The notes beneath the pieces were generated by a model. The model was not told the DNA's origin, did not search any database, and saw only the letters and a program-made list of their open reading frames with translations. From a virus (lineage: Duplodnaviria; Caudoviricetes), in IMG/VR virus record IMGVR_UViG_3300009182_000084, positions 1 to 52,798 of that record: 52,798 nt of DNA; one strand, written 5' to 3'. This document shows positions 1,503-31,832 of the stretch, piece after piece. The position numbers and the translations under genes were made by a program. Within the stretch, counting starts at the first letter, position 1, and every line of letters begins with the position of its first letter.

Positions 1503-1505
1503 GAG

Positions 1506-2880: not shown

Positions 2881-2893
2881 AACCCAAGTATGA

Positions 2894-2928: not shown

Positions 2929-2931
2929 CTT

Positions 2932-3578: not shown

Positions 3579-3914
3579 CTAGCTATTAACTTCTTCTTTT
3601 TTCTTTTTTTGTTTTGCCCTGTATTCTAGGGCAAGATTTTCGGTTGTCTGGTTTTTACTGTGAACTGTCTTGATGCGTTCTGCACGAAAACTTCTCATGC
3701 TTTCGGCACCTTTGGGTCCACCCCATACATCTACCCAACTAGTATTTGGTGTAGTAACCCTTTTAATAAACCTAAACCTGCCACGTTCCTTAGAAATCTT
3801 TAGTTCTGTTCCTGGAATGACTGAGCGGTTATTAATTTGAATCTCAGTCTCTACAGACCAATCATCATTAGGTTTTGGTACTACTGGAACTGCTGTCTTT
3901 TTCTTGCGTCCCAT
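3579..3914 (-). CDS. hypothetical protein
   Basis: 111 aa, coupled to upstream ORF. Confidence 0.75.
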   Translation of the reverse strand: MGRKKKTAVPVVPKPNDDWSVETEIQINNRSVIPGTELKISKERGRFRFIKRVTTPNTSWVDVWGGPKGAESMRSFRAERIKTVHSKNQTTENLALEYRAKQKKKKEEVNS

Positions 3915-4087
3915 TAACGTGCGTCCTTGCCCCAGCCTGTACCCTTAAACGCCACCAGAGGCGCACTGAAGCCCTTTGACATAGGTTTTACACAGTTAGG
4001 GCATAGAATCTCTGGCGAGACCGCCATGGGGTGGGAAACCTCTTGTACGTGTGCACAGGCAACGCACTTATAATCGTAACTTGGCAT
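3914..4087 (-). CDS. FmdB-family zinc-ribbon protein (57 aa)
   Basis: Hand translation MPSYDYKCVAC...CPNC...VAFKGTGWG matches the MPxYxYxC/CPxC/FKGxG FmdB signature. Confidence 0.85.
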   Translation of the reverse strand: MPSYDYKCVACAHVQEVSHPMAVSPEILCPNCVKPMSKGFSAPLVAFKGTGWGKDAR

Positions 4088-4675: not shown

Positions 4676-4751
4676 TGGAGCCTCAAGCAGGACTTGAACC
4701 CGCCACCTTCTCATTACAAGTGAGATGCTCTACCAGATGAGCTATTGAGGC
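4676..4751 (-). tRNA. tRNA-Thr(TGT)
   Basis: GCCTCAA acceptor stem, TAGCTCA..GGTAGAGC D arm, CTCA-CTTGTAA-TGAG anticodon arm, GGTTCAAGTCC T arm, encoded CCA. Confidence 0.95.
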
Positions 4752-4804
4752 AATCGGCTTCTCAATCCCTGTGTAAACTGCCACTGGCACATATTGAAGC
4801 CTTG

Positions 4805-4876
4805 CTGACCACCCTGGACTCGAACCAGGAACCTACGAGTTAACAGCTCGGTGCTCTGCCATTGAGCTAGTGGTCA
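4805..4876 (-). tRNA. tRNA-Asn(GTT)
   Basis: TGACCAC/GTGGTCA acceptor stem, CGAG-CTGTTAA-CTCG anticodon arm, GGTTCGAGTCC T arm; CCA not encoded (CAA). Confidence 0.93.
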
Positions 4877-16963: not shown

Positions 16964-17266
16964 ATGAGTAACTATTACTACCACGAAGACGGGGCCTATG
17001 GTCCTGTATCAGAGATGGATGATGAGACAGTATGGACAATGATTGTTCCTACTAACTTTTATTCATATGAAATGTGGGAACGCATTGAGAACTGTACCGA
17101 TGACTTTCGGTATGAGTTAGCAAAGCACTTTGGTTATGGCTGTCACACATTCAATAGCAATGAAGTGTGTGATGAATGTCACCTAACCAAATCAGAACTA
17201 GGCGTTGACCTAGCACCAATAAATGAATACGACAATGAAGAATACCAATTGGAGATGAGCGAATGA
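16964..17266 (+). CDS. hypothetical protein
   Basis: 100 aa, AAAGGAG SD. Confidence 0.75.
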   Translation: MSNYYYHEDGAYGPVSEMDDETVWTMIVPTNFYSYEMWERIENCTDDFRYELAKHFGYGCHTFNSNEVCDECHLTKSELGVDLAPINEYDNEEYQLEMSE

Positions 17267-17481
17267 CTATCGCAGCAATAACTATTAACAAATACAAACT
17301 AACTATCACTAATGAAGAAGGCGAGGTAAGCACTCAAACTATTTGGGCTATGCCTACGGCAGTGCCTGAATACATTGCCAAGCACAACTTGGGTGAAGTT
17401 ACCTACGAAGTAATTGATTATGGCATCCAACAGGGTGAAGAGATTACTGATGAACAACGAGAACGAATGATGGAGGTATAA
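17263..17481 (+). CDS. hypothetical protein
   Basis: 72 aa, ATGA overlap. Confidence 0.7.
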   Translation: MTIAAITINKYKLTITNEEGEVSTQTIWAMPTAVPEYIAKHNLGEVTYEVIDYGIQQGEEITDEQRERMMEV

Positions 17482-17484
17482 CAA

Positions 17485-17664
17485 ATGAATGCTATTGAGA
17501 TTGCATTAGTATGTGCATCTGTACTACAGGCTGTAGCCCTAGGTATCCTAACGGTACAGCATGAACGTACTCGCGGTGTGCTTGAGCGTATGGCATTGTT
17601 CGTAGCAACTATGGCTATGACAATTGAAAAAGAAATAAAGACAGAACTTGTCGTTACTGACTGA
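17485..17664 (+). CDS. 59-aa protein with a hydrophobic N-terminal segment
   Basis: GGAGG SD; MNAIEIALVCASVLQAVALGILTV... Confidence 0.65.
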   Translation: MNAIEIALVCASVLQAVALGILTVQHERTRGVLERMALFVATMAMTIEKEIKTELVVTD

Positions 17665-17795
17665 GGCCGAACAAGCAATAGAAGATGACGTTGATGTGCC
17701 TGCGGATGTAGCGTGGAAGTTACTGCGCCTAATGTTCAATGGGCAACCAACACAAACAAAATCAATAGAAACCAATACAACTAAGGAAGATACTA

Positions 17796-18320
17796 ATGCC
17801 TAACTGGTGTGAAAACGAGATAACTATTACAGGTAACAAAGAAGTCATTGATGAGTTGCTTATTCACGCAAGGACAACAACAAACGAAGATGCAAAAAAC
17901 CCTAAGTTTCTTATGGGTTCTTTAGTGCCTATGCCATCAGTAAACTTTGATGACTGGTATGAATGGCGTGTTAAAAATTGGGGGACTAAATGGGACTTCA
18001 ACCAATACGACATAGATTTACACATACAACAAGTAACTCCTAATACTACAGAAGTATTCTTCAGAGTAGAAACGGCGTGGGCTCCACCGTTAGAATTTTG
18101 GAAAGCACTTACTAAAAAATACAAAGTTAGAGTAGAAAACTATTACTGCGAAGAAGGTGTAGGATTTGTAGGCATTGCTAAGTTTAAAGACGGAAAAATG
18201 CGTAACAAAGAAATGCAAATAACTAATGAACTATACGAAAAGGCAGGAGCAACACTGGTAGATGGGGTAGTAGATTGGGAAACAGAACAAGAGTATGACT
18301 TTAGAAAGGTATTCAAATGA
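17796..18320 (+). CDS. DUF1281/YubB ferredoxin-like family phage protein
   Basis: MPNWCEN, WYEWRVKNWGTKWD, ETAWAPP, YCEEG signature. Confidence 0.8.
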   Translation: MPNWCENEITITGNKEVIDELLIHARTTTNEDAKNPKFLMGSLVPMPSVNFDDWYEWRVKNWGTKWDFNQYDIDLHIQQVTPNTTEVFFRVETAWAPPLEFWKALTKKYKVRVENYYCEEGVGFVGIAKFKDGKMRNKEMQITNELYEKAGATLVDGVVDWETEQEYDFRKVFK

Positions 18321-18462
18321 AAATAATGTTTGCAGGATTGTCTATTAGTTGCTTTTTTCTAGCATTAGGAAGCATAGTAGGTAATGATGATAGTATAAAT
18401 TGGCCCTGGCTATGTGTGGCGGGTGCTGTGTTTGGAACCGTAAGTAAAGGAGCAAATGAGTA

Positions 18463-18639
18463 ATGAGTAAGTATTATGTAACAGGTTATTATGTTCAGTC
18501 TTGGACTGTTGAAGTCGAAGCGGATGATGAAGATGAAGCCCTAGAGATTGGTAGTGACTTTCTTGAAGAAGGCAAGGGAGAAGAAGGCGATGGAGCATGG
18601 CAAGATGAATTCAATGTATGGGAAGATGAGGAGGAATAA
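18463..18639 (+). CDS. 58-aa very acidic microprotein
   Basis: MSKYYV...VEVEADDEDEALE...WEDEEE, coupled TAATG. Confidence 0.7.
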   Translation: MSKYYVTGYYVQSWTVEVEADDEDEALEIGSDFLEEGKGEEGDGAWQDEFNVWEDEEE

Positions 18640-18815
18640 TGAACGGATGGTGTGAACACTGCAAGCGTTACGATGTAATGATTGTTACTCAACCAAACAA
18701 AGGCAAAGGTCAAGCCTTGTGCCCTGAATGCTACGACAAATACCTTGATAGTTTCACTATGGTGCAACCACCAAGGCAAGACCCTGATGATGAAAGAAAG
18801 TATGGGAGATACTAA
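18639..18815 (+). CDS. 58-aa CxxC/CxxC microprotein
   Basis: MNGWCEHC...LCPEC; GGAGG SD, TAATG coupling. Confidence 0.65.
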   Translation: MNGWCEHCKRYDVMIVTQPNKGKGQALCPECYDKYLDSFTMVQPPRQDPDDERKYGRY

Positions 18816-18946
18816 TGACTGAACTAATGGAGCCAACCACCTGCGATTGGTGTGACGCAGTATTCGATTATCAACTAGGTGGATATGTAGGGCCTGACCA
18901 CGTATGCCCTGAGTGCCTAGAATTTGAAGATGGGATTGAAAAATAA
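18815..18946 (+). CDS. 43-aa CxxC/CxxC microprotein
   Basis: TTCDWC...VCPEC; TAATG coupling both ends. Confidence 0.65.
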   Translation: MTELMEPTTCDWCDAVFDYQLGGYVGPDHVCPECLEFEDGIEK

Positions 18947-19431
18947 TGCAGACATTCATTACTAAATTAAACTATCGTGACATTGCTAAAGAACTAGACA
19001 ATAAACGATTAAATAAGCAAGCTCTCGAGGGCTGGCAGATTCTTATGAATCTGTTAGCCATTGACCCTGATGGCAACCATCGTGAACCTAAAGGTTGGTC
19101 TAACCATCCAGCAGTCAAGATGTGGCGTGGTTATGAGATGCAACTAGCAATTTATGTTATTGCTATGTGTGATGAATGGATTGAGCGTGGTTACAATACT
19201 GTAGTTAGGCAACGAGTAGAAGATACAATGCGTCATGCTGCCTTATTGAACAGGTCTATTGGAGTAGACTTGCCACCATGGTATGTAAATATTAATACTC
19301 TTGCAGATGTTGCTAGTAGCCACAGAAAAGCATTGCTAAACAAAAACTACAATTGGTATCACCAGTTTGGTTGGCCAGAAGATGATGGCTATCCACCACA
19401 GACCTACGAATACGTATGGCCAGTAGAGTAA
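18946..19431 (+). CDS. MSMEG_6728-family / pyrimidine-dimer DNA glycosylase-like protein
   Basis: MQTF, LDNKRLNKQ..E..QI, GWSNHPAVKMWRGYE, SHRKALL.K, YVWP. Confidence 0.85.
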   Translation: MQTFITKLNYRDIAKELDNKRLNKQALEGWQILMNLLAIDPDGNHREPKGWSNHPAVKMWRGYEMQLAIYVIAMCDEWIERGYNTVVRQRVEDTMRHAALLNRSIGVDLPPWYVNINTLADVASSHRKALLNKNYNWYHQFGWPEDDGYPPQTYEYVWPVE

Positions 19432-19592
19432 AGGAGAGATAATGTCACACCATCCAGTAATACCTAAAACCGATAACTGCGAGCATGAACACGTATACGA
19501 GTACTGGCACGATTGCAGTATAGAATGCGCAGTAAACGAATGTCAAGACTGTGGTGCGTATGCCACAGACTGTGAAGATACATGGCACATAA

Positions 19593-19793
19593 ATGAAAAA
19601 GGAGAAACAAATGAATGAACCAGTAAGCAGTAACCCAGAAACAAGTGCACTATTTGAGATGTTTGAAAAAGGATATGATGCAGGAGTCAATGAAGTACTT
19701 GATGCCCTCACTATCTTTTGCGGACAAGGTGGAGTAATAGACAAAGTTAATGTAGAAGAGTGGATTGAGACTTACGATTTGGAGAGTAAATAA
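19593..19793 (+). CDS. hypothetical protein
   Basis: ORF; true start probably ATG at 19611 after AAAGGAG. Confidence 0.65.
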   Translation: MKKEKQMNEPVSSNPETSALFEMFEKGYDAGVNEVLDALTIFCGQGGVIDKVNVEEWIETYDLESK

Positions 19794-19889
19794 ATGTGTG
19801 AAGACTACCCATGCTGTGGTCATCAAAATGGTGACTGCTCAGATTATGATGGCAGCCTATTTGGTTGGCAAAAAGAAGGAGATAACTAA
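19794..19889 (+). CDS. 31-aa Cys-rich microprotein MCEDYPCCGHQNGDC...
   Basis: Hand translation; GGAG SD; TAATG coupling. Confidence 0.6.
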   Translation: MCEDYPCCGHQNGDCSDYDGSLFGWQKEGDN

Positions 19890-20053
19890 TGAGTGATACA
19901 TACTACAGCATTGAAATCTATTACCCTGACACAGGTTGGATTCCAGTTAGATGGGCTCCAAACTTTGACACAGAAGAAGAGGCCGAGGCATGGCTGTATC
20001 AAGACCATGACTGGGATGGACAAGTACAAGTAGTAAAGATTGAGGAAGACTAA
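19889..20053 (+). CDS. 54-aa acidic microprotein
   Basis: AAGGAG SD; FDTEEEAEAW motif; TAATG coupling. Confidence 0.7.
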   Translation: MSDTYYSIEIYYPDTGWIPVRWAPNFDTEEEAEAWLYQDHDWDGQVQVVKIEED

Positions 20054-20241
20054 TGAGTAAAAAAGCACTAGAAAACTTTGCAATAAGCAAGGAAATGTTT
20101 GAAGAAGCATTACAAGATACACTGACTGATGCTCAATGGGATGCTATTGCCGATGAGATTGACGGCAGGGTAGGTAACTACCTTGATGAACTACTTGGTA
20201 TGCTCATCACGGAAATTGAAGAAGGCGAGTGGGAAGACTAA
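20053..20241 (+). CDS. acidic hypothetical protein
   Basis: 62 aa, coupled. Confidence 0.7.
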   Translation: MSKKALENFAISKEMFEEALQDTLTDAQWDAIADEIDGRVGNYLDELLGMLITEIEEGEWED

Positions 20242-20411
20242 TGACTAATGTAACTCAATCTGAAGAAATAATTGAAAACTTCTCTAAGTCACTAGGTAAG
20301 GATAGCGCTTATCCTTATGCTTTTGGCTATGCTTGGGGAATGCTTACTACTAGGCAGCGCCAGCTGTTGATGGCAGTAAGTGTTGAAATGAAAAACGCAA
20401 CAACCAAATAA
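20241..20411 (+). CDS. hypothetical protein
   Basis: TAATG-coupled start MTNVTQ. Confidence 0.65.
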   Translation: MTNVTQSEEIIENFSKSLGKDSAYPYAFGYAWGMLTTRQRQLLMAVSVEMKNATTK

Positions 20412-20435
20412 CAAACAAGTAAAGGAAAAAATAAT

Positions 20436-20663
20436 ATGAAGAAGTACGAATCAGCACAAAAGACCCAGGTATTCCTTAAGGCTGCCTTGGCACACATGAC
20501 CATCCGTCGGACTGGCAAGCACCTTGTCATTCTTGCACCAGATGGTAAACTGTTCGGCAACAAGAAGCCAGTGCTCACCTACCAGATTACTAAGACCCAG
20601 GGTTGGGATGAGGTTTATGGTAAGGCGTACACTGACATGCACAAAGACCTTGTAGAGGCTTAG
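20436..20663 (+). CDS. hypothetical protein
   Basis: 75 aa, AAAGGA SD, biased codon usage. Confidence 0.75.
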   Translation: MKKYESAQKTQVFLKAALAHMTIRRTGKHLVILAPDGKLFGNKKPVLTYQITKTQGWDEVYGKAYTDMHKDLVEA

Positions 20664-20674
20664 TCAGTAGCTTT

Positions 20675-20701
20675 GGTGGCCCCGCCTAGTGCGGGGCTGC
20701 C
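20675..20701 (+). terminator. GC-rich hairpin
   Basis: GGTGGCCCCGC-CTAGT-GCGGGGCTGCC. Confidence 0.55.
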
Positions 20702-20934
20702 TTAGCACTAAAGAAGGAAAAGATGGGAATTATACTTGGGCTTCTTTTGTTGTTTTGGGTATCTGTTTGGTACCTTACATACAAAGAAGATGACCGTGAT
20801 GCATTATAGAAAGAAGAGTATATGAACGAAGATGAATACGAATCCGATTGCTGTGCATACAAAACCATGTTCTCAATGGAACGTGACCTTATATGTTTAA
20901 AATGTGGTAAACAATGTTTCAGAAAGTTTAAAAA

Positions 20935-21180
20935 ATGAGAGAGTTTAAAAATGAAGGCGCTCAATGCGCTTGTTGTGCCCCTAAAGAAATAGACAACGTA
21001 GAGATTACAGCTGCCTACAGGCTAGGTCAAACAGAGGCTAATAAAAATATTATAGATAAACTACTGGAGTTGGGTGTCTTGAGACGCAGTATGCTTGGTT
21101 CTAACTTCTATGTAATCTATAGTGAGTATGGTCCAAAAGATATAACAATAGAACGACTAACAGAAATGGAAAACAAGTGA
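20935..21180 (+). CDS. hypothetical protein
   Basis: 81 aa ORF in operon. Confidence 0.65.
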   Translation: MREFKNEGAQCACCAPKEIDNVEITAAYRLGQTEANKNIIDKLLELGVLRRSMLGSNFYVIYSEYGPKDITIERLTEMENK

Positions 21181-21631: not shown

Positions 21632-21637
21632 ATGAAA

Positions 21638-21664
21638 GGCCCCCTACCGCAATGGCAGGGGGCC
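21638..21664. terminator. hairpin between convergent whiB and nrdJ
   Basis: GGCCCCCT...AGGGGGCC inverted repeat. Confidence 0.7.
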
Positions 21665-21676
21665 CAACACAAACAA

Positions 21677-23713
21677 CTACTGGTTATCTTTAATCAACTT
21701 AACTTCACAAGCGTCTGTTGTACAGTACGCTTCACCAACTGCGTCCGCTGCCAAGCCAGCATAAACACCAGCAAAGTCAATAGGAAAAAGCTCCATAGCA
21801 TACGCCTCGTATTCTTCTTCAGTAATCTGAGTATAAGGCATCTGTGGATAGACGTGGTTACCCATTGGCAAGAAAGAGACAGTCTTTAGTTGACCGTCGT
21901 ACATGTGTAGCGCCGTACCAATAGCGTCGCTTTCCTTTTCACTATCAAAGGTGACAGTTACAGAAACAGAATTGTCACTCCAATAACGTTGTGCAGTAGC
22001 TGCCAATGCCATCTTTTCATACACAGAAACGTCTTTTTCAGACCTTTCTGCCCCAGATTTAATAGGGAAAAATACTACAGAAGTAGTATCTGGCGATTCC
22101 GATGCAGGTTCAACTCTATACTGAGCCATCTTAAACAAAGGCAACATAGGGTCATTATTTCCAAAACGAATAGCTCTAAGGAAGTATTTGCCACCCGCTG
22201 TCCAGTGAACACCTGGCGACTCACCCGCAAGAATAGAAACAGTACCAGAAGGCTTAACTGTAGTCATTTTAATAGACTCGCGAATACCTAGCCACTCACT
22301 GTAAGTCTGGTCATAGTTTTTAACTACACCATAACCTTCATCCATCCATTCACGTAGCACGTGCATGCCCTTAGAGTCTGCAAAGTTTGCTACGCCTGAA
22401 ACTGACGTACCAATACGGCGGTTACGCTGCATGATTGCGTTTGTTTCTTCCCAGTGAGTAGGAAGTAGAGTCACAGTCTTTGCGTAGAGGTAAGCAAATT
22501 TAAGTGTGCGTTTAAAATCTTCTAGTGACTCATGTCTATTCAAATACGTTTCTACAAGCGTACACATTTCAAACGATTCAAGTGACTGCTCAGCGCATGG
22601 GTTGTACCCAACTACACGCCAATCCTTGTTGTTTACACCATCAGCTAGACGCCCATACTTACGACTCATGTCCATCCAGACTACGCCTGGCTCACCATTG
22701 CGTACAATTCCATCCACAATTGGGTCAAAATCCGTACCTACTGATACTTCCACGCTGTTATTACTCATCCACGCCCAACCTGGGGCTTCTGGGTCATAAC
22801 TGTTACGCTCTGGAAACTTCTCTGCATTCTTCAAATTCAGAAAATTCTCGTCATCAATACGGCCAATCAACAACTCTGCCGAACGTCGTACGTTACCCGA
22901 TACCACACATACGCCAATCAGATTACCAATGTCTGCGATGTCTGTACGCGTCAGCTTTTGTCCGCCTCTATTCAAAAATAGATTACGAATGTGGTTGTGC
23001 AAATTAATCAATGGTTCTGGACCCGACGCTGTTCCACCAAACGTGGCAATTGGCGCACCGTATGGTCGAATCAAATCGTAATTAAATTCCCACATTGGCT
23101 GGTCTGCTTTTAGAAATGAATTTATTAATGCGGTTGTGGACTCTGCCCAACCTTCACGCGTGTCTGGAATTACGTATTCCGACACCCCTTGTGGTGCGTA
23201 AATATCAAATCCCTTATCAGCACCCTTGTCATCAAATCCAACACCCACACCCAACATCGATGCCTCCATCAAAAATGCAAATGGCTTGGCTGGATTGTTC
23301 TTGGTCATCTCGTTTGTACTAACAAATGCACAATTCTGCAACGCTGCGCTGTTCTTTTGCTCGTTTACAATTGGCGTACCCATTACCCACAAACCACGAC
23401 CTGGCGGTGTCCACTTCAACTGGAATAGGCGTTCAAATGCTTCTTTTGCTGACGCTGCTGCTTTGGCATCCGACCATGGCAAACGGTTAGACTTTGCGTG
23501 GTCTTTCTGCAATGAATACATGCCGTTAATTACACGTTCGCAAACTTCTGCCCACGTCTCTTTTGTTCCATCGTCTTTCTTGCGGCTGTATGTGCGCAAA
23601 AAGGTAATTTCACCTACCGAGTTGCCCGCAACATCGGTGTAACCAAATGGTGCTTTCTTGTCCTTGTATCCTGATACGAAATCTTCCGCTAAACGGAATG
23701 AAAAATTAGTCAT
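21677..23713 (-). CDS. nrdJ: adenosylcobalamin-dependent class II ribonucleotide reductase (monomeric RTPR type)
   Basis: RTYSR, PPGRGLW, NCAF, GNVRRSAE, NPCAEQSL, TTVKPSGTVS, C-terminal CTTDAC. Confidence 0.95.
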   Translation of the reverse strand: MTNFSFRLAEDFVSGYKDKKAPFGYTDVAGNSVGEITFLRTYSRKKDDGTKETWAEVCERVINGMYSLQKDHAKSNRLPWSDAKAAASAKEAFERLFQLKWTPPGRGLWVMGTPIVNEQKNSAALQNCAFVSTNEMTKNNPAKPFAFLMEASMLGVGVGFDDKGADKGFDIYAPQGVSEYVIPDTREGWAESTTALINSFLKADQPMWEFNYDLIRPYGAPIATFGGTASGPEPLINLHNHIRNLFLNRGGQKLTRTDIADIGNLIGVCVVSGNVRRSAELLIGRIDDENFLNLKNAEKFPERNSYDPEAPGWAWMSNNSVEVSVGTDFDPIVDGIVRNGEPGVVWMDMSRKYGRLADGVNNKDWRVVGYNPCAEQSLESFEMCTLVETYLNRHESLEDFKRTLKFAYLYAKTVTLLPTHWEETNAIMQRNRRIGTSVSGVANFADSKGMHVLREWMDEGYGVVKNYDQTYSEWLGIRESIKMTTVKPSGTVSILAGESPGVHWTAGGKYFLRAIRFGNNDPMLPLFKMAQYRVEPASESPDTTSVVFFPIKSGAERSEKDVSVYEKMALAATAQRYWSDNSVSVTVTFDSEKESDAIGTALHMYDGQLKTVSFLPMGNHVYPQMPYTQITEEEYEAYAMELFPIDFAGVYAGLAADAVGEAYCTTDACEVKLIKDNQ

Positions 23714-23863
23714 GTAACCACCATCTGTTAATTATTTGAAATACCCCGACTGGGGAACCTCTATTATCGCTGGTATTAGCTTAACATGCTTCTACTAATA
23801 TCGTCAAACACACAAATACTCTGACTATTTTCTGGACTATAACGTTTCAATACTTATATGACC

Positions 23864-23878
23864 CTGTTATCAGATACT
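23864..23878. repeat. 15-bp exact direct repeat CTGTTATCAGATACT, copy 1
   Basis: Identical to 24520-24534. Confidence 0.85.
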
Positions 23879-23879
23879 A

Positions 23880-25373
23880 CTATTCTAATGAATCCTTGAT
23901 TATGAACGTGGTTTGCTCTTCGTTTAGTGGCTGATTTAGCTCTCGCAATGCCTGCGCTTTGTCACCAAAAATTGCTGACAGTACACCTCCCGATGTCTGG
24001 CGGCTGGCAGTAATCTGAACAAACTCTTTATTGCTTTCCAGGTCCTTGACTGACGCCACCAACTTCAACAATCTGTCCATTTCCTGGGACGTATTTGGGT
24101 CTGCGTATCCACCATTCAATTCTTCTGCAAACCGCATAAATGCTACTCTCTGGCCCTGCATCTCAACAATTGCGGTCAACAAACCCTTCAGCTGGTCCTT
24201 GGTTTTAACTTCAATTGGCAGGTTAAATGCACACGTGTTTGCTGGCTTAAATGCGGGGCAATTCGCTGCGACAAAACAGGTATCGCACTGTCTCAAACTG
24301 GCACTATTGGACTGAACTACGGGCACATCTTTTAGTACATCACGACCGTCTTCTGTCTCCACAATAGTCTTCATCTGATACCCCAAAACAGGCATTGAAA
24401 TGACTTCATTTGGGTCTCTTTGCACTACCTCTGTGCGTTCAACTTTCCGCACTTCGGACCCCTTGTTATTAGATGGGTCTATATCCAAATCCATCAAACC
24501 ACTGTATAGGGTATTATCACTGTTATCAGATACTTTGTCACCTTGAATGAGCTTCAGCTCTGGTTTTTCTTTATCCATTTGCTTCTCTAACTGTAAATAT
24601 GACCAAACCGCAACTTTTGTTGCTTCTAATGTGTCATCACCTTTGAACTTACCAAAATCAAATCCCGCTTTTTCAACTACACTTTTGTATCTTAAACGGG
24701 CTTGGTCTTTCATCTTTTTTGGATAACGAACCAGCTTTGACCCGTCCCAAATAATTGTTTCACCTCGCCGCATTGGGCTCAACCACGACAATGTGCTGGC
24801 AGTATCAAATGGAATTTGCCTCAGATTGTCTGGTTTTGCTGTTGCCAATGCGTGGAACTCGGTCCCGTATGTTCTTTTTAAACTTCTAACTGTTCCTGAT
24901 AATGACGTAACTGTTTCGATTACATCCCCTGGAATTGCAACATTTTTGTACTCTTCCGACCACTGTCGCAACATGGCAGAACTGTATGTATCGTGCCAAA
25001 CTACCCACATCTTTGGGTCATTTTCAAATGCGGCCCGCTGCTGTTGAACCCAATTTAGGCCCAACACTTGGCTATCAAACTCTACCCAGCCTTCAATTCG
25101 TTCATAATTTAATGCAATAAACTCTTCATAGTCCGCCGCGTACTCCTCGAGCTCACGAACTGACCACCCAGCTTTATCTGCTTGAACTGCTCCTGAATCT
25201 ACCCACACTTTCATGTTTGGGAGGAAATGCTCACCAATTAGATACGCCTTTGTCTTTGGCAAACCTCTTTTGCGCAATCCCCAGTACGACAACATAACTT
25301 GGTCTACGCCTGTGCGTTCCAATAACGTCCTGTTTGATGGTACTTCTACCCCACCAAAAATCAACTTACTCAA
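23880..25373 (-). CDS. two-domain protein: degenerate TGT/DpdA-like TIM-barrel plus Cys4/helical C-terminal domain
   Basis: VWVDSGA, VVWH, VAIPG, FHALA, STLSW echo the phage LDSGAF/PVWH/HGFG/DSSSW TGT-like family; CDTC..NC...TC cluster. Confidence 0.55.
   Translation of the reverse strand: MSKLIFGGVEVPSNRTLLERTGVDQVMLSYWGLRKRGLPKTKAYLIGEHFLPNMKVWVDSGAVQADKAGWSVRELEEYAADYEEFIALNYERIEGWVEFDSQVLGLNWVQQQRAAFENDPKMWVVWHDTYSSAMLRQWSEEYKNVAIPGDVIETVTSLSGTVRSLKRTYGTEFHALATAKPDNLRQIPFDTASTLSWLSPMRRGETIIWDGSKLVRYPKKMKDQARLRYKSVVEKAGFDFGKFKGDDTLEATKVAVWSYLQLEKQMDKEKPELKLIQGDKVSDNSDNTLYSGLMDLDIDPSNNKGSEVRKVERTEVVQRDPNEVISMPVLGYQMKTIVETEDGRDVLKDVPVVQSNSASLRQCDTCFVAANCPAFKPANTCAFNLPIEVKTKDQLKGLLTAIVEMQGQRVAFMRFAEELNGGYADPNTSQEMDRLLKLVASVKDLESNKEFVQITASRQTSGGVLSAIFGDKAQALRELNQPLNEEQTTFIIKDSLE
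24520..24534. repeat. 15-bp exact direct repeat CTGTTATCAGATACT, copy 2
   Basis: Identical to 23864-23878; lies in the inter-domain linker coding region. Confidence 0.85.
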
Positions 25374-25851
25374 AATTTAATGTTTCTGTTCTTGTCAAAC
25401 GTGCATCTTGGGTTCGTAATGCGTTTTGCTTTTCAATCGCTGCCTCAATCTCATTCCATGCACGTACTTTTTTAGGTGCATCTGGTCGAAATTCTGGGCG
25501 TGTGTACGAGGGAACTGCAAACATTACCGATGGGATTCCCTGCTCAAATGCAAATGTCCACGTGCTTGGATTGTTTGTAATAAATAAATCCACTGCGCCC
25601 TTTGCACGGCTCAATGTCAACTGGCGCTGCGCTAACGGAACATCGTGCAGCGCTACTGATGAATCTACAATGTTGTCAAAATCTACAATCTTATTACTGT
25701 CTAACCAGTACCGTGTTTCTCTTTCATCAGACGATGACAATAAGGTCAACTTATTGTACACGCTCAGTGTACCTGCCATAATAACGCCAGTACCAATTGG
25801 CTCATCGTTTGTGCCTCGTAATACGCCGTCTAATTCTACTACTATGTGCAT
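25366..25851 (-). CDS. HAD-fold-like protein with variant motif I
   Basis: IVVELDGVL in place of DxDGV. Confidence 0.6.
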   Translation of the reverse strand: MHIVVELDGVLRGTNDEPIGTGVIMAGTLSVYNKLTLLSSSDERETRYWLDSNKIVDFDNIVDSSVALHDVPLAQRQLTLSRAKGAVDLFITNNPSTWTFAFEQGIPSVMFAVPSYTRPEFRPDAPKKVRAWNEIEAAIEKQNALRTQDARLTRTETLNFE

Positions 25852-25857
25852 TTATTC

Positions 25858-25950
25858 CTAATAACTATCGTCTGTACAATCGCATTTGCAGGTGTCCTCT
25901 ACACAAATGTCTTTGTATAGCTCATGGCCACATTTAATACAGTGTGTCAA
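25858..25950 (-). CDS. 30-aa Cys-rich microprotein
   Basis: TTG start directly after upstream stop; THCIKCGH...C....CKCDC. Confidence 0.5.
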   Translation of the reverse strand: MTHCIKCGHELYKDICVEDTCKCDCTDDSY

Positions 25951-26805
25951 TTACTTGTTCCTATATGTTGCTGCTCGTCGGATTAGTGTGCTGGAATCTG
26001 GGATGTCCATTCCACTTACCATACTAGTCTTGAGATGCTGGCGTATGGTTCTCAACTTATTAATTGTTCCACGCTGCTTGCCTGCTTGCCAACGATAGTT
26101 GTGAAAATCCCCGTAACCTTGACCTGTTGGTGAAAACGCAATGCTTCTATTATTATGAATCTCGTTATACAGTGCATTTGCCTGCATTGCTGCCGCAGTC
26201 ATTTTAACCTCTGAATTACGTCTTACGGCTTCATTTGTGGCCATCTGCACATCTTGCAGGGATGCCTGATAGCGGTTGTATGTATTAGTGGCTAATGATG
26301 CATCTGAATTGGCTACACTATCCCACTCCGCGTTATTAGGAGCTTCCTGGGCTGGATTTGGAGTTACCGTCCACTCGTCGTACTTCAAATCGTATGCAGC
26401 GTATGGCTTAATAGTTTTAATATCATTTGTCGTCAACGCATAATACGTCAACTCAAATCCATTCCAGTCTTCGGTCCCGCTGTTGTGCAGCAGGTCATTC
26501 AACTCATCCGCAATCTCTCGGTCTGACAATCCAGCATACTCTGGGTTTGCTTTTCTAAACTGTATAAAATTAATACCCACTAGACAATCTAGGTCTTTTG
26601 GTTCCCTGGCGGCCTGCCATTGATAACTTACTCCTGAACCTGCCAACCAGGGATGTGTCCACAAATCTGCATGGCGGAATGACTGCCCCAACAAATCAAT
26701 CAAAATGCTCTGGATACCAGAACGCACCTGCGACTTCAATGACCTACCATCAAATAGGGTTGGGTCAAGAGTATCGGCAGGTGCGCTAAAGTATGATGTA
26801 TTCAT
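25951..26805 (-). CDS. nucleotidyltransferase (Pol beta superfamily)
   Basis: LAGSGVSYQW......DLDCLV = hGS-xn-DhD motif; TAAACT-N6-ATG leaderless start. Confidence 0.75.
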   Translation of the reverse strand: MNTSYFSAPADTLDPTLFDGRSLKSQVRSGIQSILIDLLGQSFRHADLWTHPWLAGSGVSYQWQAAREPKDLDCLVGINFIQFRKANPEYAGLSDREIADELNDLLHNSGTEDWNGFELTYYALTTNDIKTIKPYAAYDLKYDEWTVTPNPAQEAPNNAEWDSVANSDASLATNTYNRYQASLQDVQMATNEAVRRNSEVKMTAAAMQANALYNEIHNNRSIAFSPTGQGYGDFHNYRWQAGKQRGTINKLRTIRQHLKTSMVSGMDIPDSSTLIRRAATYRNK

Positions 26806-26821
26806 ACCTCTAGTTTACTGG

Positions 26822-27097
26822 CTATGCAGGTTCTTGTGGTGTAATTCCACGTTCTTTTAGTTTTTCTTTAATTGCATCAGGAACCGTTGGCTCTACTGGG
26901 TTTAGCGCATTTACAATACGGTCTACCAGCATCTGGGTTTCTAGTTCCTTAATGATGGCCTGCAGTGTAATGAAAACATCGTAACTAGATGCCTCTCGCT
27001 GAACCTCAATAACTTCACCAGTTTGCTTTAGATTTACTGCGAAGGTACCGTCTGTGTGAACAACTACGGTAAATGCTGTTTCAATTTGCTTTTCCAT
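26822..27097 (-). CDS. hypothetical protein
   Basis: 91 aa, AAGGAG SD. Confidence 0.75.
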   Translation of the reverse strand: MEKQIETAFTVVVHTDGTFAVNLKQTGEVIEVQREASSYDVFITLQAIIKELETQMLVDRIVNALNPVEPTVPDAIKEKLKERGITPQEPA

Positions 27098-27108
27098 TTA
27101 TATACTCC

Positions 27109-27663
27109 TTAATACATTCCCATGATTTTACGACGCAACTGCACAACCTGACCGTGGTACGGACAGAAATGACACGTGTAAATCTTTGGACCGTCTAGAT
27201 GTTCTGGCTTTGGCAGCCCTAGTTCGCCACGTTCCTTTGCGGTATCTGGCAACAGACGTTTTGATGGTGACTCGTAATCATCACAATTTACTGTGGGCTT
27301 GTTGTGCTTTTCCCAACACGACATAGCGTCATCAGCAAACTGCATCTTGGTTTCGTAGAATGACTTCTCTGGGTCTAGTTCATCTAGACCTCGTGAACCG
27401 CCCTGTTTAAACTGTTCAAGAATGGCCGCTTTTTGTTCTGGGTTTGCCCATGCTTTAACTGGCAGCTTAAACAACTTACCCTTGTGTGGCTCTCCCGAGT
27501 CAAACTTGTGCTTTTCTAGAGAAATCTCCAACAAATAATCGCGGTCTGTTGGCCCCTCATAGTCTGGAAGTTCTTCTAGCGTCTCGCAAACTAGGCACAT
27601 CAGCAAACGAATTACTGGGCCCTCAATAGGTTTTGACCCAATTACTGGTTTAAATTCAGTCAT
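27109..27663 (-). CDS. Cys/His-containing hypothetical protein
   Basis: 184 aa; CLVC, CWEKH, CHFC. Confidence 0.8.
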   Translation of the reverse strand: MTEFKPVIGSKPIEGPVIRLLMCLVCETLEELPDYEGPTDRDYLLEISLEKHKFDSGEPHKGKLFKLPVKAWANPEQKAAILEQFKQGGSRGLDELDPEKSFYETKMQFADDAMSCWEKHNKPTVNCDDYESPSKRLLPDTAKERGELGLPKPEHLDGPKIYTCHFCPYHGQVVQLRRKIMGMY

Positions 27664-27923
27664 TAAACTACCAGCCCGTGCTCAATCAACCAATTAAGGT
27701 TTTCGCTTATCTGCTGAGTAAACCCATGCTTTTCTAGCCATGCCTGACCATCTGGGGTCTGCAGGGCTTGCGCACGACGCTTCAACCATGCTGAACGAGT
27801 TGCTTTTAGTTCATCACTCATATTTGCAGGAAACCACTGAAGATAATAGTTACGTGATTCATCCGACAAAAGGGATGGTTGGCGAAGGTGTCCCTCTGCA
27901 TCAGTCCAGTCATTTAGTTCCAT
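27663..27923 (-). CDS. hypothetical protein
   Basis: 86 aa, AAGGAG SD. Confidence 0.7.
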   Translation of the reverse strand: MELNDWTDAEGHLRQPSLLSDESRNYYLQWFPANMSDELKATRSAWLKRRAQALQTPDGQAWLEKHGFTQQISENLNWLIEHGLVV

Positions 27924-27977
27924 GTTATTCTCCTTATTAGTTGTACGTATTAGTATACCGATATTTTAATAGGTTGT

Positions 27978-28103
27978 CTAGTTGCTTTGACTTTCCCTAC
28001 GAGCTCTCTGACCAGTAGCGTGTGCCTGCTTTGTACCATAAAAAGGTGTATTAAATACCTTGTGGTTGATTGTGCGGCCTTGATTACTTTTTAATCCTGT
28101 CAT
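27978..28103 (-). CDS. 41-aa microprotein
   Basis: Hand translation MTGLKSNQGRTINHKVF... Confidence 0.5.
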   Translation of the reverse strand: MTGLKSNQGRTINHKVFNTPFYGTKQAHATGQRARRESQSN

Positions 28104-28105
28104 TT

Positions 28106-28318
28106 TTACTTCCCTGGATTTACCATAGATTCGGCAGGCGCTTCAGATGTGGCAAAACCGTAACCGTAGAATGGGTGCAATGTCTGCTTGTTGTCCATGA
28201 TACGCTCGTTGTCTTCACTGCCTACAACCTGCGTGTTTGGGCGTACCTTGCGGTACTTGCCGTCAGTTGCGCCTTCGTGAAGGCTTCCGTTCATCGAACG
28301 ACTTGTATTAACTGCCAT
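28106..28318 (-). CDS. hypothetical protein
   Basis: 70 aa, AAGGA SD. Confidence 0.7.
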   Translation of the reverse strand: MAVNTSRSMNGSLHEGATDGKYRKVRPNTQVVGSEDNERIMDNKQTLHPFYGYGFATSEAPAESMVNPGK

Positions 28319-28352
28319 TGTTTCTTCCTTTGTTAACTCTTAGTTTATTGTA

Positions 28353-28544
28353 CTAGACCATGCGATTAACGACACGGTTAGCCATCTTTTTTTCGTGACA
28401 TGTTGGGCACAACAATTGATTCATAACTTGAATAGGATTCATCATAATTCCACATGTAGGGCATGGTCGTGAACCATTCATAATTCCGTCTACTACAGCC
28501 TTGGCTTGTAGGTCCATGGTGTAGCCACCGTCATCAGTATCCAT
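28353..28544 (-). CDS. zinc-finger microprotein
   Basis: CPTC...CPTC. Confidence 0.7.
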   Translation of the reverse strand: MDTDDGGYTMDLQAKAVVDGIMNGSRPCPTCGIMMNPIQVMNQLLCPTCHEKKMANRVVNRMV

Positions 28545-31321
28545 TATTCGCCCCTAAATGCTGCGAGGTTCTTGGCTGCACGGCTATTTGACCCACTAAG
28601 GGTTGGTGGCGGTGCAGTAGGCGTGCTTACAGTTTTCACATTTTTAGGCAATACAGTAGGTACAGATTGAGATTCTGGTCTCTCATTTACGTATTCTTCT
28701 AGATAACGGTGTGGGTCAGTGTAGGCCGTACTTGATGCGTAGTCTTTAGAGTGAGCAGCGTGCTTCTTAAGAAGAGTTGTATATGCTTTTTCATCTTTAG
28801 GATTACCGCTAGTTTCTGATAGCTTTCTTGCAGCAGCTAGCTGGCCAACAGTAGCTGGTGCAGGATTCCAGCTTAGCCAGTCTTTTCTAGCGGCTGCGTG
28901 CGCCACTTCAAATGCATCAAATAGAGGCTTTTGTTTTGCACTGGGGGTCTTTACTGAGCTGTAATCTTTAAGAGTTAGTGGGCCACTAAATTCTTTTTCT
29001 TTTTTAGTTCTCGTAGTAGAACCTACGGATGGCTCTTCTGTAGCCTTTGCAGCCGCAGCTTTTGCACGTGCTTCAATAATCTCTGGGTGGTCCTTAATCC
29101 ATTGAGCATTAAACGCCTCCGTGGATTTACGTGCACGTTGAGCTGAAGGAGAATCCATCTCTGTTCCATGAGTAATGCCCTTGGCTTCCTCTGCTCTACG
29201 AAGTCTGGATGGGTTTGCAGAAACTGTACGGGTAAACTTTTCTCCAGTTTTTGGATTTGTAGCCTCTACTTCTCTAGGGCTGGCGCTTTGACCATTAACA
29301 GTTACTTCACCTTTGTAACCCAAAGTTGTTTGTCCTGCGTCAAGTCCTTTGCGCTGGCGGTATGCCCTGATACTTCTAAGAGTTCCGAGTTCCGCTACCT
29401 TTTTTTCCTTTTCTGCTTCTGCGGCTTGCTTCAGTTCCTCTGGAGTGCGTGGACGTGTACGTTCAGCTTCTTGAGCTGCTCTGTTTGTTTTCTCACGCTC
29501 AGTAATTCTTTGCAAAAGTTCTTCAGGAGAATCAGCAAAACCAACAATGACGCCCTTTTTATTGCCCTGCTTGTACTTAACTTTAATTGGGGCTTCGGCA
29601 ACTTCGGGCGTTCTAACTTGCCTAAAATCATTTACTGTAAAATCTGGAACACGACCAGCTTTGTGCCATTCTTGAATCTGTTTGCTAGTTGCAATGTTAA
29701 AAGCAGCGGTTCGTAGAGGTCCAAGTTCCTCTCCCCTAAAGTTAACCTTGTTTCTAGGAATCTTAATGCCTGCTTGCTGCATGCTTTCGATTTCTTTTTG
29801 GTGCTTTTTTGCAATTGCTTCGGATTTAGAACCGACAAGCAATGACCTGTTATCAAAATTGTTTGCGTGCTGCCAGTCCATGATTTTTTCAGCCATTTCT
29901 GGGTTGGCATACTCGCTCAAATCAGATTTTTTGTACCTATTAACAGCCATAAGGGCTGCTTGACCATAACGAACACCGTGGTAATCGTTTTTAAATCCGT
30001 GTCTGTAAACTTCTTTTCCAGGATAAGCTGCCTCTACACCTTCAAATCCTGGGATGTCTGTTCGAACATTCTTTGCTGGCCTGTCCTCACTAAACATTTC
30101 TGCAGGAATGGGGTTACCCAGTACGGTACGACTAACGTCTTCTAGTTTACCTGCCAAAGTTCCGATATGTTTAGCTGCAAGAAGAGCGTGCTCTACACCT
30201 GTTTGTGCGCCATTAACATCATCATCAACAGTCACGTACTCTTCTTTTGGAGCACGAGCTGTAAAGTCAGCAGGTGAACCACCACCTTCACCTACAGATT
30301 CAAGCTGAGCTGGTGTGTAGTTCTGACTCTGTACTGGACGACCAAATGCATTTAGGTCTTTGGCCTTAACTCTAGGGCTAATAACTCCTTCACCACGTCC
30401 GTGAGCAAGGTTAGCGTTTCCTAGATGGTTCCACATTTCATTTGCTAAACCAGATAGGTGCTCCAAATCTTCGTGGTAAGCTCCAGGAGCAGTTCTTTGA
30501 ATAGCGTCTCTAACTTGTCCAAGTCTGTGATTTAGACTTGATGCAATGAGGTGAAGGTCTCCAAGACCAGGGCCCATGTCATTGGCCGCCTTACGGTCAC
30601 TAGAAGTTATTTCTTCTAGAGCACCTGGACGAGCAGCTTTAGGCATGCGGAAAGTCTCATCTCCACCGCCAGATTCCCTAACTTCTTTAGCTACAGCAGC
30701 TTCGGAAGGAGTTGAAGTAGGGCCACCAGAATCAAGATTCTGGTCACTCTTTATAATATCTTCTCTTTCTGCTTTTAGCATTTTTTTAATAGCGTCTGAG
30801 TAGGCTTCGCTTGCTTGTTTTCTATTGGTATTTACTGCGGGGGCTTTAGCAGCCGAACCAACATTTTGACGTGATACTGTGAAATCACCATTTGGGCCCT
30901 CTGTAGTTGACCCAATAACTGATGCAAGAGTGTCATTAATTTTTGCAATCTTTAACGCATCTTCAGCATTTCTTACTTTTTTACTTCTAGAACGAGGTGG
31001 CTCTACAAGACCTACCTTACGTCGTGCAGCCTTTACCTCATCTGTGGTAGCACCTTTTCTAGGTACGACTCCAGGTACAAGAACACCCGTGTCTTTTAAT
31101 GTCGCTTTTGCTGCGGATTTTGCTACGGTTTTATCTCCAACAGCTTCTGCTTGGTCTTTAGACAGACCTGAATTCTTACGTTTTGCATTTGTTTTACGGG
31201 TTTGTTCAGCCGCCTCTTCAACGCTAGGTTTGCCTGCATTGGCACGACGGCGCGCTTCCTCTAGGTCAACATTAATATCTGCGCCCGAACCACCCGTAGC
31301 ATTTAGGTTTTTCTTAGCCAT
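28544..31321 (-). CDS. large Ala/Lys/Glu-rich, largely disordered hypothetical protein
   Basis: 925 aa, no Cys, no recognisable domain. Confidence 0.85.
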   Translation of the reverse strand: MAKKNLNATGGSGADINVDLEEARRRANAGKPSVEEAAEQTRKTNAKRKNSGLSKDQAEAVGDKTVAKSAAKATLKDTGVLVPGVVPRKGATTDEVKAARRKVGLVEPPRSRSKKVRNAEDALKIAKINDTLASVIGSTTEGPNGDFTVSRQNVGSAAKAPAVNTNRKQASEAYSDAIKKMLKAEREDIIKSDQNLDSGGPTSTPSEAAVAKEVRESGGGDETFRMPKAARPGALEEITSSDRKAANDMGPGLGDLHLIASSLNHRLGQVRDAIQRTAPGAYHEDLEHLSGLANEMWNHLGNANLAHGRGEGVISPRVKAKDLNAFGRPVQSQNYTPAQLESVGEGGGSPADFTARAPKEEYVTVDDDVNGAQTGVEHALLAAKHIGTLAGKLEDVSRTVLGNPIPAEMFSEDRPAKNVRTDIPGFEGVEAAYPGKEVYRHGFKNDYHGVRYGQAALMAVNRYKKSDLSEYANPEMAEKIMDWQHANNFDNRSLLVGSKSEAIAKKHQKEIESMQQAGIKIPRNKVNFRGEELGPLRTAAFNIATSKQIQEWHKAGRVPDFTVNDFRQVRTPEVAEAPIKVKYKQGNKKGVIVGFADSPEELLQRITEREKTNRAAQEAERTRPRTPEELKQAAEAEKEKKVAELGTLRSIRAYRQRKGLDAGQTTLGYKGEVTVNGQSASPREVEATNPKTGEKFTRTVSANPSRLRRAEEAKGITHGTEMDSPSAQRARKSTEAFNAQWIKDHPEIIEARAKAAAAKATEEPSVGSTTRTKKEKEFSGPLTLKDYSSVKTPSAKQKPLFDAFEVAHAAARKDWLSWNPAPATVGQLAAARKLSETSGNPKDEKAYTTLLKKHAAHSKDYASSTAYTDPHRYLEEYVNERPESQSVPTVLPKNVKTVSTPTAPPPTLSGSNSRAAKNLAAFRGE

Positions 31322-31323
31322 TA

Positions 31324-31830
31324 TTAACCTTTATTTCTCTTTAGTGCGATTGGCTTTGGTGGAGCAGGAGTTGGAATAGGCTTTCCAGCAGTCTTAGTAA
31401 CAGGATTTTGGGTTGTCTTTTTAGCAGTTGTTGCTTTTTTTGTTGTCGGTGGTTTTGGAGAAGCGCCTGTGACGTAATGAGCATCTCCACGTTGGCGTGA
31501 ACGACGTGGAGTTCCTGCAGGTTGACCCTTTGCACCACGAGCAGACGCAGTTGAGTAACCTACTCCAGCACCTGTTGGTTTAGTTTCCTTAGCAGCAGGC
31601 TTAGCTTTGGTTGTTGAGTCTGGCTCTGATTTCTTTGTTTTAGCGCCCTTTTCCATGGCAGACAAAAGCCCTTTAAGGGTTTGTGCCTGTCTCTTGTTAA
31701 ATGTAGCTAGAGCCATTCCAGTAAGAGGCTTTCCATTACTATCTTTGGGTACAAAGTTTTTAGCGTTACGTGGCTTATATGTATTAACGTCAATGTCTTT
31801 AGACTTTAGTGGTTTTTTTTCTGCGGCCAT
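31324..31830 (-). CDS. highly basic histone-H1-like low-complexity protein
   Basis: 168 aa; Lys/Thr/Ala/Pro-rich (TTKKATTAKKTT). Confidence 0.7.
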   Translation of the reverse strand: MAAEKKPLKSKDIDVNTYKPRNAKNFVPKDSNGKPLTGMALATFNKRQAQTLKGLLSAMEKGAKTKKSEPDSTTKAKPAAKETKPTGAGVGYSTASARGAKGQPAGTPRRSRQRGDAHYVTGASPKPPTTKKATTAKKTTQNPVTKTAGKPIPTPAPPKPIALKRNKG

Positions 31831-31832
31831 GT

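Follow-up and report, generated by a model that had tools for sequence, protein, structure and literature searches.

A strand-specific trinucleotide desert maintained by selection over the orf63-nrdJ operon in a clade of freshwater phages

The 52,798-nt DNA stretch analysed here (IMG/VR virus record IMGVR_UViG_3300009182_000084, Caudoviricetes; hereafter the window) carries a motif-avoidance island at about 22.58-28.56 kb. Throughout this island the template strand of the leftward orf63-nrdJ operon is nearly free of the word RAG (R, purine; Y, pyrimidine) and the corresponding mRNA is nearly free of CUY, a state that is kept by selection. The island is inherited in one clade of related freshwater phages, where it is always centred on a trio of neighbouring genes, orf284, orf161 and the gene of a putative TGT/DpdA-like protein of 497 amino acids (aa), which lies next to nrdJ, the gene of a class II ribonucleotide reductase.

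The initial annotation of the window, made from the letters alone, had drawn attention to a scarcity of AG on the plus strand at 22680-26750, starting within nrdJ. Its hand counts proved exact (6 AG in 23041-23700 and 17 in 21721-21900), and the depletion that it described is real: 22680-26750 holds 74 AG (odds ratio, rho, 0.41), only 2 of them in AAG and 8 in GAG, while CT remains common on the same strand (rho 1.04) and GA stands at a rho of 0.70. Plus-strand AG rho is 0.26-0.46 in the 1-kb windows starting at 22501-25001 and 0.76-1.60 in those lying wholly outside 22-28 kb, with CT at normal levels in the 1-kb windows of the desert (rho 0.90-1.15). Over the whole 52.8 kb, AG in the desert is the sole dinucleotide/window pair with a robust z below -4, and its odds ratio differs greatly from that of the other minus-strand genes. 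The sequence of the window was found again in contigs from five DNA runs, three being possible sources, and as pieces in three RNA libraries, and an assembly artefact is therefore unlikely.

The depletion is graded according to the letter that precedes AG. As compared with the numbers expected at control density, 22680-26750 has 2 AAG instead of 67, 8 GAG instead of 50, 26 TAG instead of 79 and 38 CAG instead of 68; relative to 28-41 kb, the densities are 0.04, 0.14, 0.29 and 0.55 for AAG, GAG, TAG and CAG, respectively. On the plus (template) strand it is thus 5'-RAG-3' that is avoided, and for the minus-strand genes this means CTY on their sense strand. RAG occurs 27 times in the 5961 nt of 22583-28543 (4.5 per kb versus 28.8 per kb in the other territory of minus-strand genes), whereas the opposite-strand control, plus-strand CTY, is unchanged (42.6 per kb inside the desert versus 42.3 outside). 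YAG, which is CTR on the sense strand, is about halved in the core alone, at approximately 22.75-26.25 kb, which comprises orf161, the TGT-like gene and the 5' part of nrdJ. The interval first annotated thus describes AG correctly, and AG as a whole does fade by about 28 kb, but this fading appears mostly because YAG returns beyond about 26.3 kb while RAG stays scarce; the RAG desert itself reaches further right, to about 28.56 kb. Its left edge is abrupt, with 14-20 AG per 200-nt bin up to 22600 and 1-5 in the bins that follow, and no RAG is found between 22580 and 23602.

The following lines of evidence establish that the depletion acts at the nucleic-acid level and not on codon choice. First, we compared the genes with 2000 synonymous resamplings in which the protein sequence was fixed and the codon usage was the window's own. 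The 5' part of nrdJ has 15 CT versus a null mean of 65.6 (null minimum 46) and 2 CTY versus 31.6; the TGT-like gene has 28 CT versus 92.4 (minimum 72) and 3 CTY versus 44; orf161 has 8 CT versus 33.7 and orf284 has 27 versus 60.5. None of the 2000 resamplings reached the observed counts in any of these four, whereas the 3' part of nrdJ is normal (69 CT versus a null mean of 59.7), and orf925 and polA are ordinary under the same null. Second, all three codon phases are depleted, as seen when the two parts of nrdJ are compared: NCT codons make up 3 of 82 in the 5' part and 15 of 52 in the 3' part, CTN leucine codons 6 of 23 and 43 of 69, and the ratio of NNC|T to NNT|T at codon junctions is 2 to 25 and 15 to 20, respectively. 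Third, the spacers are depleted as well, with not a single RAG between nrdJ and the TGT-like gene or at 25852-25950. The initial annotation was therefore right in calling the pattern positional, and the codon shifts that it listed are found, usage having moved to GCA/GCG, CCA, ACA/ACG, TCA/TCG and TTG/TTA. A compositional island due to horizontal transfer or codon bias is ruled out by the three depleted phases, the spacers and the local character of the desert in four whole genomes of relatives.

These substitutions also bear on how the word was lost. The C, the T and the next letter were each swapped where the genetic code permits: CTT and CTA leucine codons gave way to TTG and TTA (the CTT share of leucine codons drops from 0.30 to 0.00), NCT codons to NCA or NCG, and NNC|T junctions to NNT|T, every change being synonymous and the protein sequences untouched. 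Any CT in these genes can be lost without altering the protein. A context-specific deaminase or similar enzyme would not replace all three letters in this way. The initial annotation had considered a zone kept free of a base modification or eroded by a locally acting enzyme; such a zone may exist, but erosion through one type of substitution fits poorly. AID/APOBEC-like kataegis and hypermutation by a diversity-generating retroelement were ruled out for want of a dominant substitution type. More generally, a transcription-linked mutator targeted to the motif (AID- or kataegis-like, or a retroelement), with no selection on the motif itself, would account for a feature that is local, strand-coordinated and confined to one transcription unit, but we regard it as very improbable, given that no single substitution type prevails and that the state is kept through the heavy synonymous turnover described below. 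Its only surviving version, damage followed by a ratchet, merges with the proposal of an enzyme acting on its own operon, which is weighed further on.

IMG/VR holds hundreds of relatives of both the nrdJ and the TGT-like proteins (314 were reported for the latter), and the best 80 loci of each were kept. We profiled all 80 nrdJ loci together with the named phage DSL-LC01, and 62 of the 80 TGT-like loci (the short ones and three already present in the nrdJ set were left out). The gene order orf184-orf91-orf284-orf161-TGT-like-nrdJ is conserved among these relatives. Sense-strand CT depletion occurs in a subset of them only, and it always stays within some 3 kb upstream or downstream of the point where the TGT-like gene starts; in nearly every lineage orf161 ranks with the lowest-CT genes of the module. 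A tree of 88 distinct TGT-like proteins places every depleted member in a single 100%-supported clade of 35, within which their distribution is patchy. The initial annotation had asked about a desert around the homologue of the TGT-like gene in related phages: the observed/expected ratio of CTY in that gene is below 0.5 in 18 of the 34 distinct relatives in the clade, 0.5-0.75 in 6 and at least 0.75 in 10, as compared with none of 70 distinct relatives below 0.5 outside the clade and 2 of 70 at 0.5-0.75 (one of them, L105, is close to the L091 group). DSL-LC01, the closest named phage, has no desert, and nothing was found among named phages for near-identical DNA. The other clades of the module have no desert of an alternative motif.

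The same motif hierarchy is seen across 14 diverged lineages. When these were pooled (43,750 nt of desert versus 87,666 nt of upstream control), the sense-strand densities relative to control were 0.14 for CTT, 0.26 for CTC, 0.51 for CTA and 0.61 for CTG, and those of CT according to its 5' neighbour were 0.27 for G, 0.33 for T, 0.43 for A and 0.61 for C. Between desert lineages, 45-58% of the four-fold sites of nrdJ are different (for example in the window versus L082, L085, L006 and L004), and still the first 750 nt of nrdJ hold 6-11 CT in each of them, as compared with about 53-76 in the members of this clade that have no desert. In the same desert lineages the 3' part of the gene is ordinary (61-68 CT), and the pressure therefore stops inside nrdJ in those lineages. 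The word is rarer than in the synonymous null, and the same word is avoided in independent lineages: this is motif avoidance under selection, and the desert has been actively maintained over long times.

Seven whole relatives were also scanned, four with the desert (G001-G004) and three without a CT desert (G006, G007 and G008). The module is the strongest dinucleotide outlier in G001, G002 and G004 (z between -6.0 and -7.1); in G003 its z of -4.0 compares with -5.0 for a second, broad AG-low stretch. The lowest-CT genes among the 108-121 open reading frames (ORFs) of G001-G004 are orf161, the TGT-like gene and either orf284 or orf91, and in G001 five adjacent genes have CTY observed/expected ratios of 0.10-0.21 versus a genome median of 1.06. 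A moderate desert of CTY only (0.28-0.49) is present in G006, and none in G007 and G008. Genome-wide usage of CT and CTY does not differ between the desert-bearing and the desert-free group. Broad and mild AG-low stretches (rho 0.64-0.78) also exist elsewhere, at 23001-32000 in G003 and at 55501-58500 in G006.

The initial annotation had also raised the possibility of a recombination breakpoint with a donor poor in CT throughout its genome. Sharp edges are what such a cassette would leave, and recombination inside nrdJ does occur, as judged from a co-occurring strain in run X4 whose nrdJ is 90-95% identical to the window in its 3' part and then diverges near 22.4-22.5 kb. However, no relative is CT-poor throughout among 104 distinct relatives and the seven whole genomes; in all relatives studied, the four whole desert-bearing genomes among them, the desert is a local one; it persists under synonymous turnover; and the two halves of nrdJ do not clearly conflict in their identity profiles or trees. 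Sharp edges could similarly be read as a packaging-start zone cleared of decoy sites, another suggestion of the initial annotation, but the edges lie at different places in different relatives, and no word of 3 nt can act as a decoy for a pac site. Both origins, cassette and packaging, are extremely improbable in our view. As to the X4 strain itself, its contigs break off at about 21867-21911, 22413-22504 and 24093, which indicates sub-gene mosaicism in the population, including near the left edge of the desert.

The shape of the island across lineages relates it to transcription. Its upstream onset is a modest step at about -3 kb, and its downstream end is abrupt and lineage-dependent. In seven lineages (L095, L102, L087, L089, L100, L109 and L083) the desert goes no further than the end of the TGT-like gene; in L002 it stops at the start of nrdJ, and in others inside nrdJ, at about 300 nt (L008), 870-950 nt (L082, L085, L006 and L004), 1130 nt (the window) or 1500 nt (L108). 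In the four lineages that have no nrdJ it stops at the junction with the convergent genes and is not prolonged on that physical strand. The sense strand of these convergent genes is itself not clearly depleted (apart from a slightly low value in L095, the lineages resemble the desert-free L104). The desert is thus tied to the sense of transcription and confined to one transcription unit. In the window, the right end (about 28.56 kb) meets the start of a three-gene insertion, orf586-orf168-orf925. At the downstream edge we found no outstanding RNA hairpin in eight lineages, no terminator, no Rfam family, and no iterons, repeat clusters or origin-like repeats; a weak promoter-like match on the plus strand (9 of 12 positions, 22632-22659) is of a kind that is less frequent there than in shuffled sequences.

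From these observations we tentatively propose that selection may shield the transcription unit from a nuclease, or a tightly binding factor, specific for CUY or RAG, a reading that we hold to be possible rather than probable. An enzyme recognising the short word would cut it or bind it tightly, and the island would protect the expression of the orf284/orf161/TGT-like trio. The target could be either the transcript, read as C-U-(U>C>A>G), or the transcribed DNA strand, read as (A>G>T>C)-A-G. An action on the transcript or on the transcribed strand fits because of the link to the sense of transcription, the independence of reading frame, the gradation of the word and the removal of its weak forms in the core only; such a graded hierarchy is expected from a sequence-preferring nuclease or binder. 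We would favour the RNA level, at which the mRNA of the module would stay intact while CUY-containing transcripts are attacked, by analogy with ACA-less mRNAs, which are reported to be still translated under MazF (PMC5408214). The same source describes the sites of MazF-mt3 and MazF-mt7 as under-represented in the PPE genes of M. tuberculosis (PMC5408214). As in transcripts that resist mRNA interferases, the word in the island is absent from the sense strand only, in a frame-independent manner, and over one transcription unit.

Several points weigh against a CUY- or RAG-specific nuclease or binder. The rest of each phage genome has a normal or high CTY content (median observed/expected 1.06-1.15), and the agent would therefore hit other phage genes too, unless its action is limited in time. 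In several lineages the downstream edge falls inside nrdJ, at the distances given above, where there is no hairpin, terminator or conserved element. The contigs of the RNA libraries are uninformative on transcript ends or cleavage, and the need of the gene trio for shielding is a rationalisation. No nuclease or binder with either specificity is known to us from these hosts, nor did our scans reveal one: the searches of the unknown ORFs with PADLOC, Pfam and PHROG were empty and returned no nuclease, methylase or RNase of that specificity.

Two known activities were considered as the agent and rejected. Mycobacterial RNase E cleaves the motif RN|CNU, and neither CAT nor CGT is depleted on the sense strand; type IA topoisomerases prefer a C four nucleotides 5' of the cut, and there is no preference for C two positions 5' of CT.

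Comparison of the gene content of the seven whole genomes (ORFs of at least 50 aa) yielded a candidate of another kind, since only two adjacent small lysine-rich genes separate the groups (4 of 4 desert-bearing versus 0 of 3 others). One of them, of 63 aa, is present in 10 of the 10 strong-desert records that are at least 51% complete (five further desert records, 30-66% complete, lack the gene and were left out); the 4 members of the clade that have no CT desert lack it, and 2 of the 15 desert-free records of 75% completeness or more have it. Among genomes with primases only 57-70% identical to that of the window, the gene is 82-95% identical, and desert-bearing and desert-free genomes are interspersed in the primase tree; because this tree does not separate the groups, the link between gene and desert is not simply one of backbone ancestry. 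The link is weakened by G006, which has the moderate CTY desert without the 63-aa gene. The gene belongs to a huge, unnamed family, and an Atlas match to DUF5872 (score 0.87) is a weak lead; its 92-aa neighbour (a 78-aa ORF in other genomes) may resemble DUF5872 too. The small lysine-rich pair is a lead, and possibly a lineage marker.

The genes at the centre of the island suggest a different agent. The 497-aa protein matches phrog_887, annotated as queuine tRNA-ribosyltransferase, over residues 3-489 (E 9.1e-62), shares 34-35% identity with proteins of Streptomyces phages that carry the annotation queuine tRNA-ribosyltransferase or dpdA-like, and has an invariant CxxCx5Cx8C cluster. It matched no Pfam family at E up to 5, no NCBIfam model and, when a 28-sequence profile was used, no PDB chain at E up to 1, so that it is a putative TGT/DpdA-like enzyme on the PHROG annotation. 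An exact 15-nt direct repeat has one copy just past the stop codon of its gene (23864-23878) and the other inside the gene (24520-24534), and each copy contains one of the few remaining CAG. Regarding its neighbours, orf161 has an N-terminal motif, hhhh(D/E)x(D/E/N/S)GV, which merely resembles HAD motif I, its aspartates not being invariant, so the HAD label of the initial annotation is not upheld; it has no match in Pfam, NCBIfam or PDB. Similarly, orf284, initially called an NTase, has no significant family or PDB match.

If the TGT/DpdA-like protein is a DNA base-exchange enzyme that recognises the G of 5'-RAG-3', the operon that encodes it could have been purged of this word on the template strand. 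Being made beside its own gene, the enzyme would act there preferentially, and the purge would avoid roadblocks or lesions that stop transcription, or else targeted damage would ratchet the motif away. In every lineage the desert lies on the genes of this putative base-exchange module, it is confined to one fully supported clade of the enzyme tree (18 of 34 inside versus 0 of 70 outside), and the invariant letters of the template strand include the G that a guanine-exchange enzyme needs. The word length is also suitable, DpdA enzymes being reported to have motifs of 2-3 nt, GA in iggy and GA and GGC in CAjan (PMC10484667, PMC7544227). However, there is no GA or TC desert around dpdA in CAjan or iggy, of which the motif GA is known from experiment, nor around the homologue of the 497-aa protein in Streptomyces phage BRock; the other module clades show no desert of an alternative motif; 10 of the 34 clade members are undepleted; and both the preference for action in cis and the strand polarity have to be assumed. 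The identity of the enzyme counts against it as well, for the reasons given above and because QueC, the sole preQ0-pathway gene searched, was not found in 5 of 5 complete relatives, the control genomes being positive. We consequently consider an enzyme purging its word from its own operon to be unlikely.

Three further observations concern this protein and its relatives. ThyA was not found in five complete relatives. The window encodes tRNA-Thr(UGU) and tRNA-Asn(GUU), at 4676-4751 and 4804-4876, and as tRNA-Asn(GUU) is one of the tRNAs modified by classical TGT, the TGT-like protein could act on tRNA rather than on DNA. In BRock (L206), sense-strand CT is low at 1001-4000, in gp1-gp2 at the left end of the genome (rho 0.57-0.67, z to -4.8), the sole dinucleotide outlier of that size in its first 45 kb.

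The order AAG > GAG > TAG > CAG also resembles the preference of type I-E CRISPR systems for their protospacer-adjacent motif (PAM), AAG. Hosts with such systems could take strand-biased spacers from this locus, as in primed adaptation, and the phages would drop the PAMs. A feature that is local, restricted to one strand, sharp on one side and patchy among close relatives would agree with this. On the other hand, ATG and AGG function as PAMs in E. coli, and here ATG shows a 1.62-fold enrichment and AGG does not fall below the other words of the form AGN; the deepest depletion lies far from the single priming site expected from the strand rule; several lineages have preserved the desert at this locus through roughly one substitution per synonymous site; and neither local PAM deserts nor a maintained purge over several kb are described in the literature searched. 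PAM purging is accordingly, in our opinion, quite unlikely.

A strand-specific word of the CTN type is likewise what DnaG-type primases start on, their start words including CTG and CTA, and the initial annotation had proposed a stretch lacking primase starts. The primase would start at 5'-CTY-3' on the lagging-strand template, and the stretch would be kept free of starts. The window does encode a primase and a DnaB-like helicase, and the depleted strand is the lagging-strand template if the forks run with transcription. But no benefit of such a zone is evident, the desert does not follow the primase tree, it concerns one module only with variable ends, and no iterons or origin-like repeats were found. 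A start-free zone is thus distinctly improbable.

The features discussed here are listed in Table 1. The operon that ends in the island is a leftward operon of replication and nucleotide metabolism (O-like initiator, DnaB-like helicase, primase, helicase, PolA and UvsX-like recombinase). It ends with orf63-orf70-orf86-orf184-orf91-orf284-orf161, the TGT-like gene and nrdJ, followed by a strong hairpin. The first 1130 nt or so of nrdJ (22583-23713) lie inside the desert and the last 900 nt or so are normal. In the shallower part, the CTY observed/expected ratio is 0.19 for orf91, 0.34 for orf184, 0.24 for orf70 and 0.00 for orf63, and that of orf86 is not significant.

Table 1. Positions of the island and of the features named in the text (in the window, unless a relative is named)
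Feature	Position	Strand	Remarks
RAG desert	22581..28564	+	flanking RAGs at 22580 and 28565
Deep core of the desert	22581..26750	+	10 RAG in 4168 nt
nrdJ, class II ribonucleotide reductase	21677..23713	-	Pfam RNR_Alpha E 9.9e-30; RNR-II insertion domain E 3.2e-12
Spacer between TGT-like gene and nrdJ	23714..23879	-	2 AG and 0 RAG in 166 nt
Putative TGT/DpdA-like protein, 497 aa	23880..25373	-	phrog_887; sense-strand CTY observed/expected 0.12
orf161	25366..25851	-	CTY observed/expected 0.20; usually the deepest desert gene in relatives
orf284, conserved neighbour	25951..26805	-	CTY observed/expected 0.32
Shallower part of the desert, orf91/orf184/orf86/orf70/orf63	26822..28544	-	lower depth than the core
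Terminator-like hairpin	21637..21665	-	12-bp stem with 9 G-C pairs; closes the operon where it meets the convergent plus-strand genes
Small lysine-rich gene pair, in relative G001	22231-22509 and 22771-22962	-	equivalent to L165 2231-2509 and 2771-2962

Two regions adjoining the island have features of their own. At 17001-21000, just across the convergence point from the desert, where small ORFs lie on both strands, plus-strand TC is about halved (rho 0.52-0.60, z about -3), with TCG, TCT, CTC and GTC the lowest. In the three-gene insertion on the other side (28544-33593), orf925, orf168 and orf586 have no homologue in the locus of any relative and no family match, and their CT content is normal or high.

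Avoidance of a short motif is normally weak and genome-wide, whereas the island has lost a 3-nt word almost completely from a single strand over about 6 kb. The upkeep of this state by selection in many diverged phages implies a strong reader of the word. RNases, nickases, modifying enzymes, primases and CRISPR systems are all candidates, and with both word and strand now defined the reader can be sought directly. Local deserts may also offer a computational route to the recognition words of nucleic-acid enzymes in uncultured viruses. If the TGT-like enzyme were to avoid its own word, its DNA motif would be readable from a local desert of self-avoidance in the sequence alone, and this would be a case of a DNA-modifying enzyme that acts preferentially in cis and shapes the genome.

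In the literature searched on DpdA motifs, strand-specific avoidance in phages, PAM depletion and primed adaptation, and interferase-free transcripts, no local one-strand trinucleotide desert is described. The island can be set beside systems that share part of its properties. Phages are known to avoid restriction sites and other motifs, including sites in one orientation that evade type III enzymes, and as in the island the recognition word is removed by synonymous change; the known cases are genome-wide, concern words of 4-8 nt and mostly affect both strands, whereas here the word has 3 nt and is missing from one strand of 6 of about 90 kb. Escape from type I-E CRISPR systems would similarly involve NAG with A preferred in the first position, on one strand, locally and in a patchy manner, but ATG and AGG are not avoided in the island. 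DnaG-type primases and the R^AG nicking enzymes of chloroviruses are, like the reader sought here, strand-specific readers of 3-nt words (CTN and RAG, respectively), and we know of no local start-free or nick-free zones for either. As regards the DpdA-type guanine transglycosylases, the likeness lies in the TGT-like gene within the desert and in the words of 2-3 nt that such enzymes are reported to read. The reference DpdA phages differ by having no local motif desert, and the phages studied here by the lack of a Pfam TGT match and of a detected QueC. Finally, the island is like the interferase-free transcripts in that a short word is missing from the sense strand of certain transcripts irrespective of frame, an absence that lets the interferase-free transcripts survive their RNase. 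It differs from them in its word, CUY, for which we know of no RNase, in covering about eight genes and ending in the middle of a gene, and in being borne by phages and conserved across diverged lineages.

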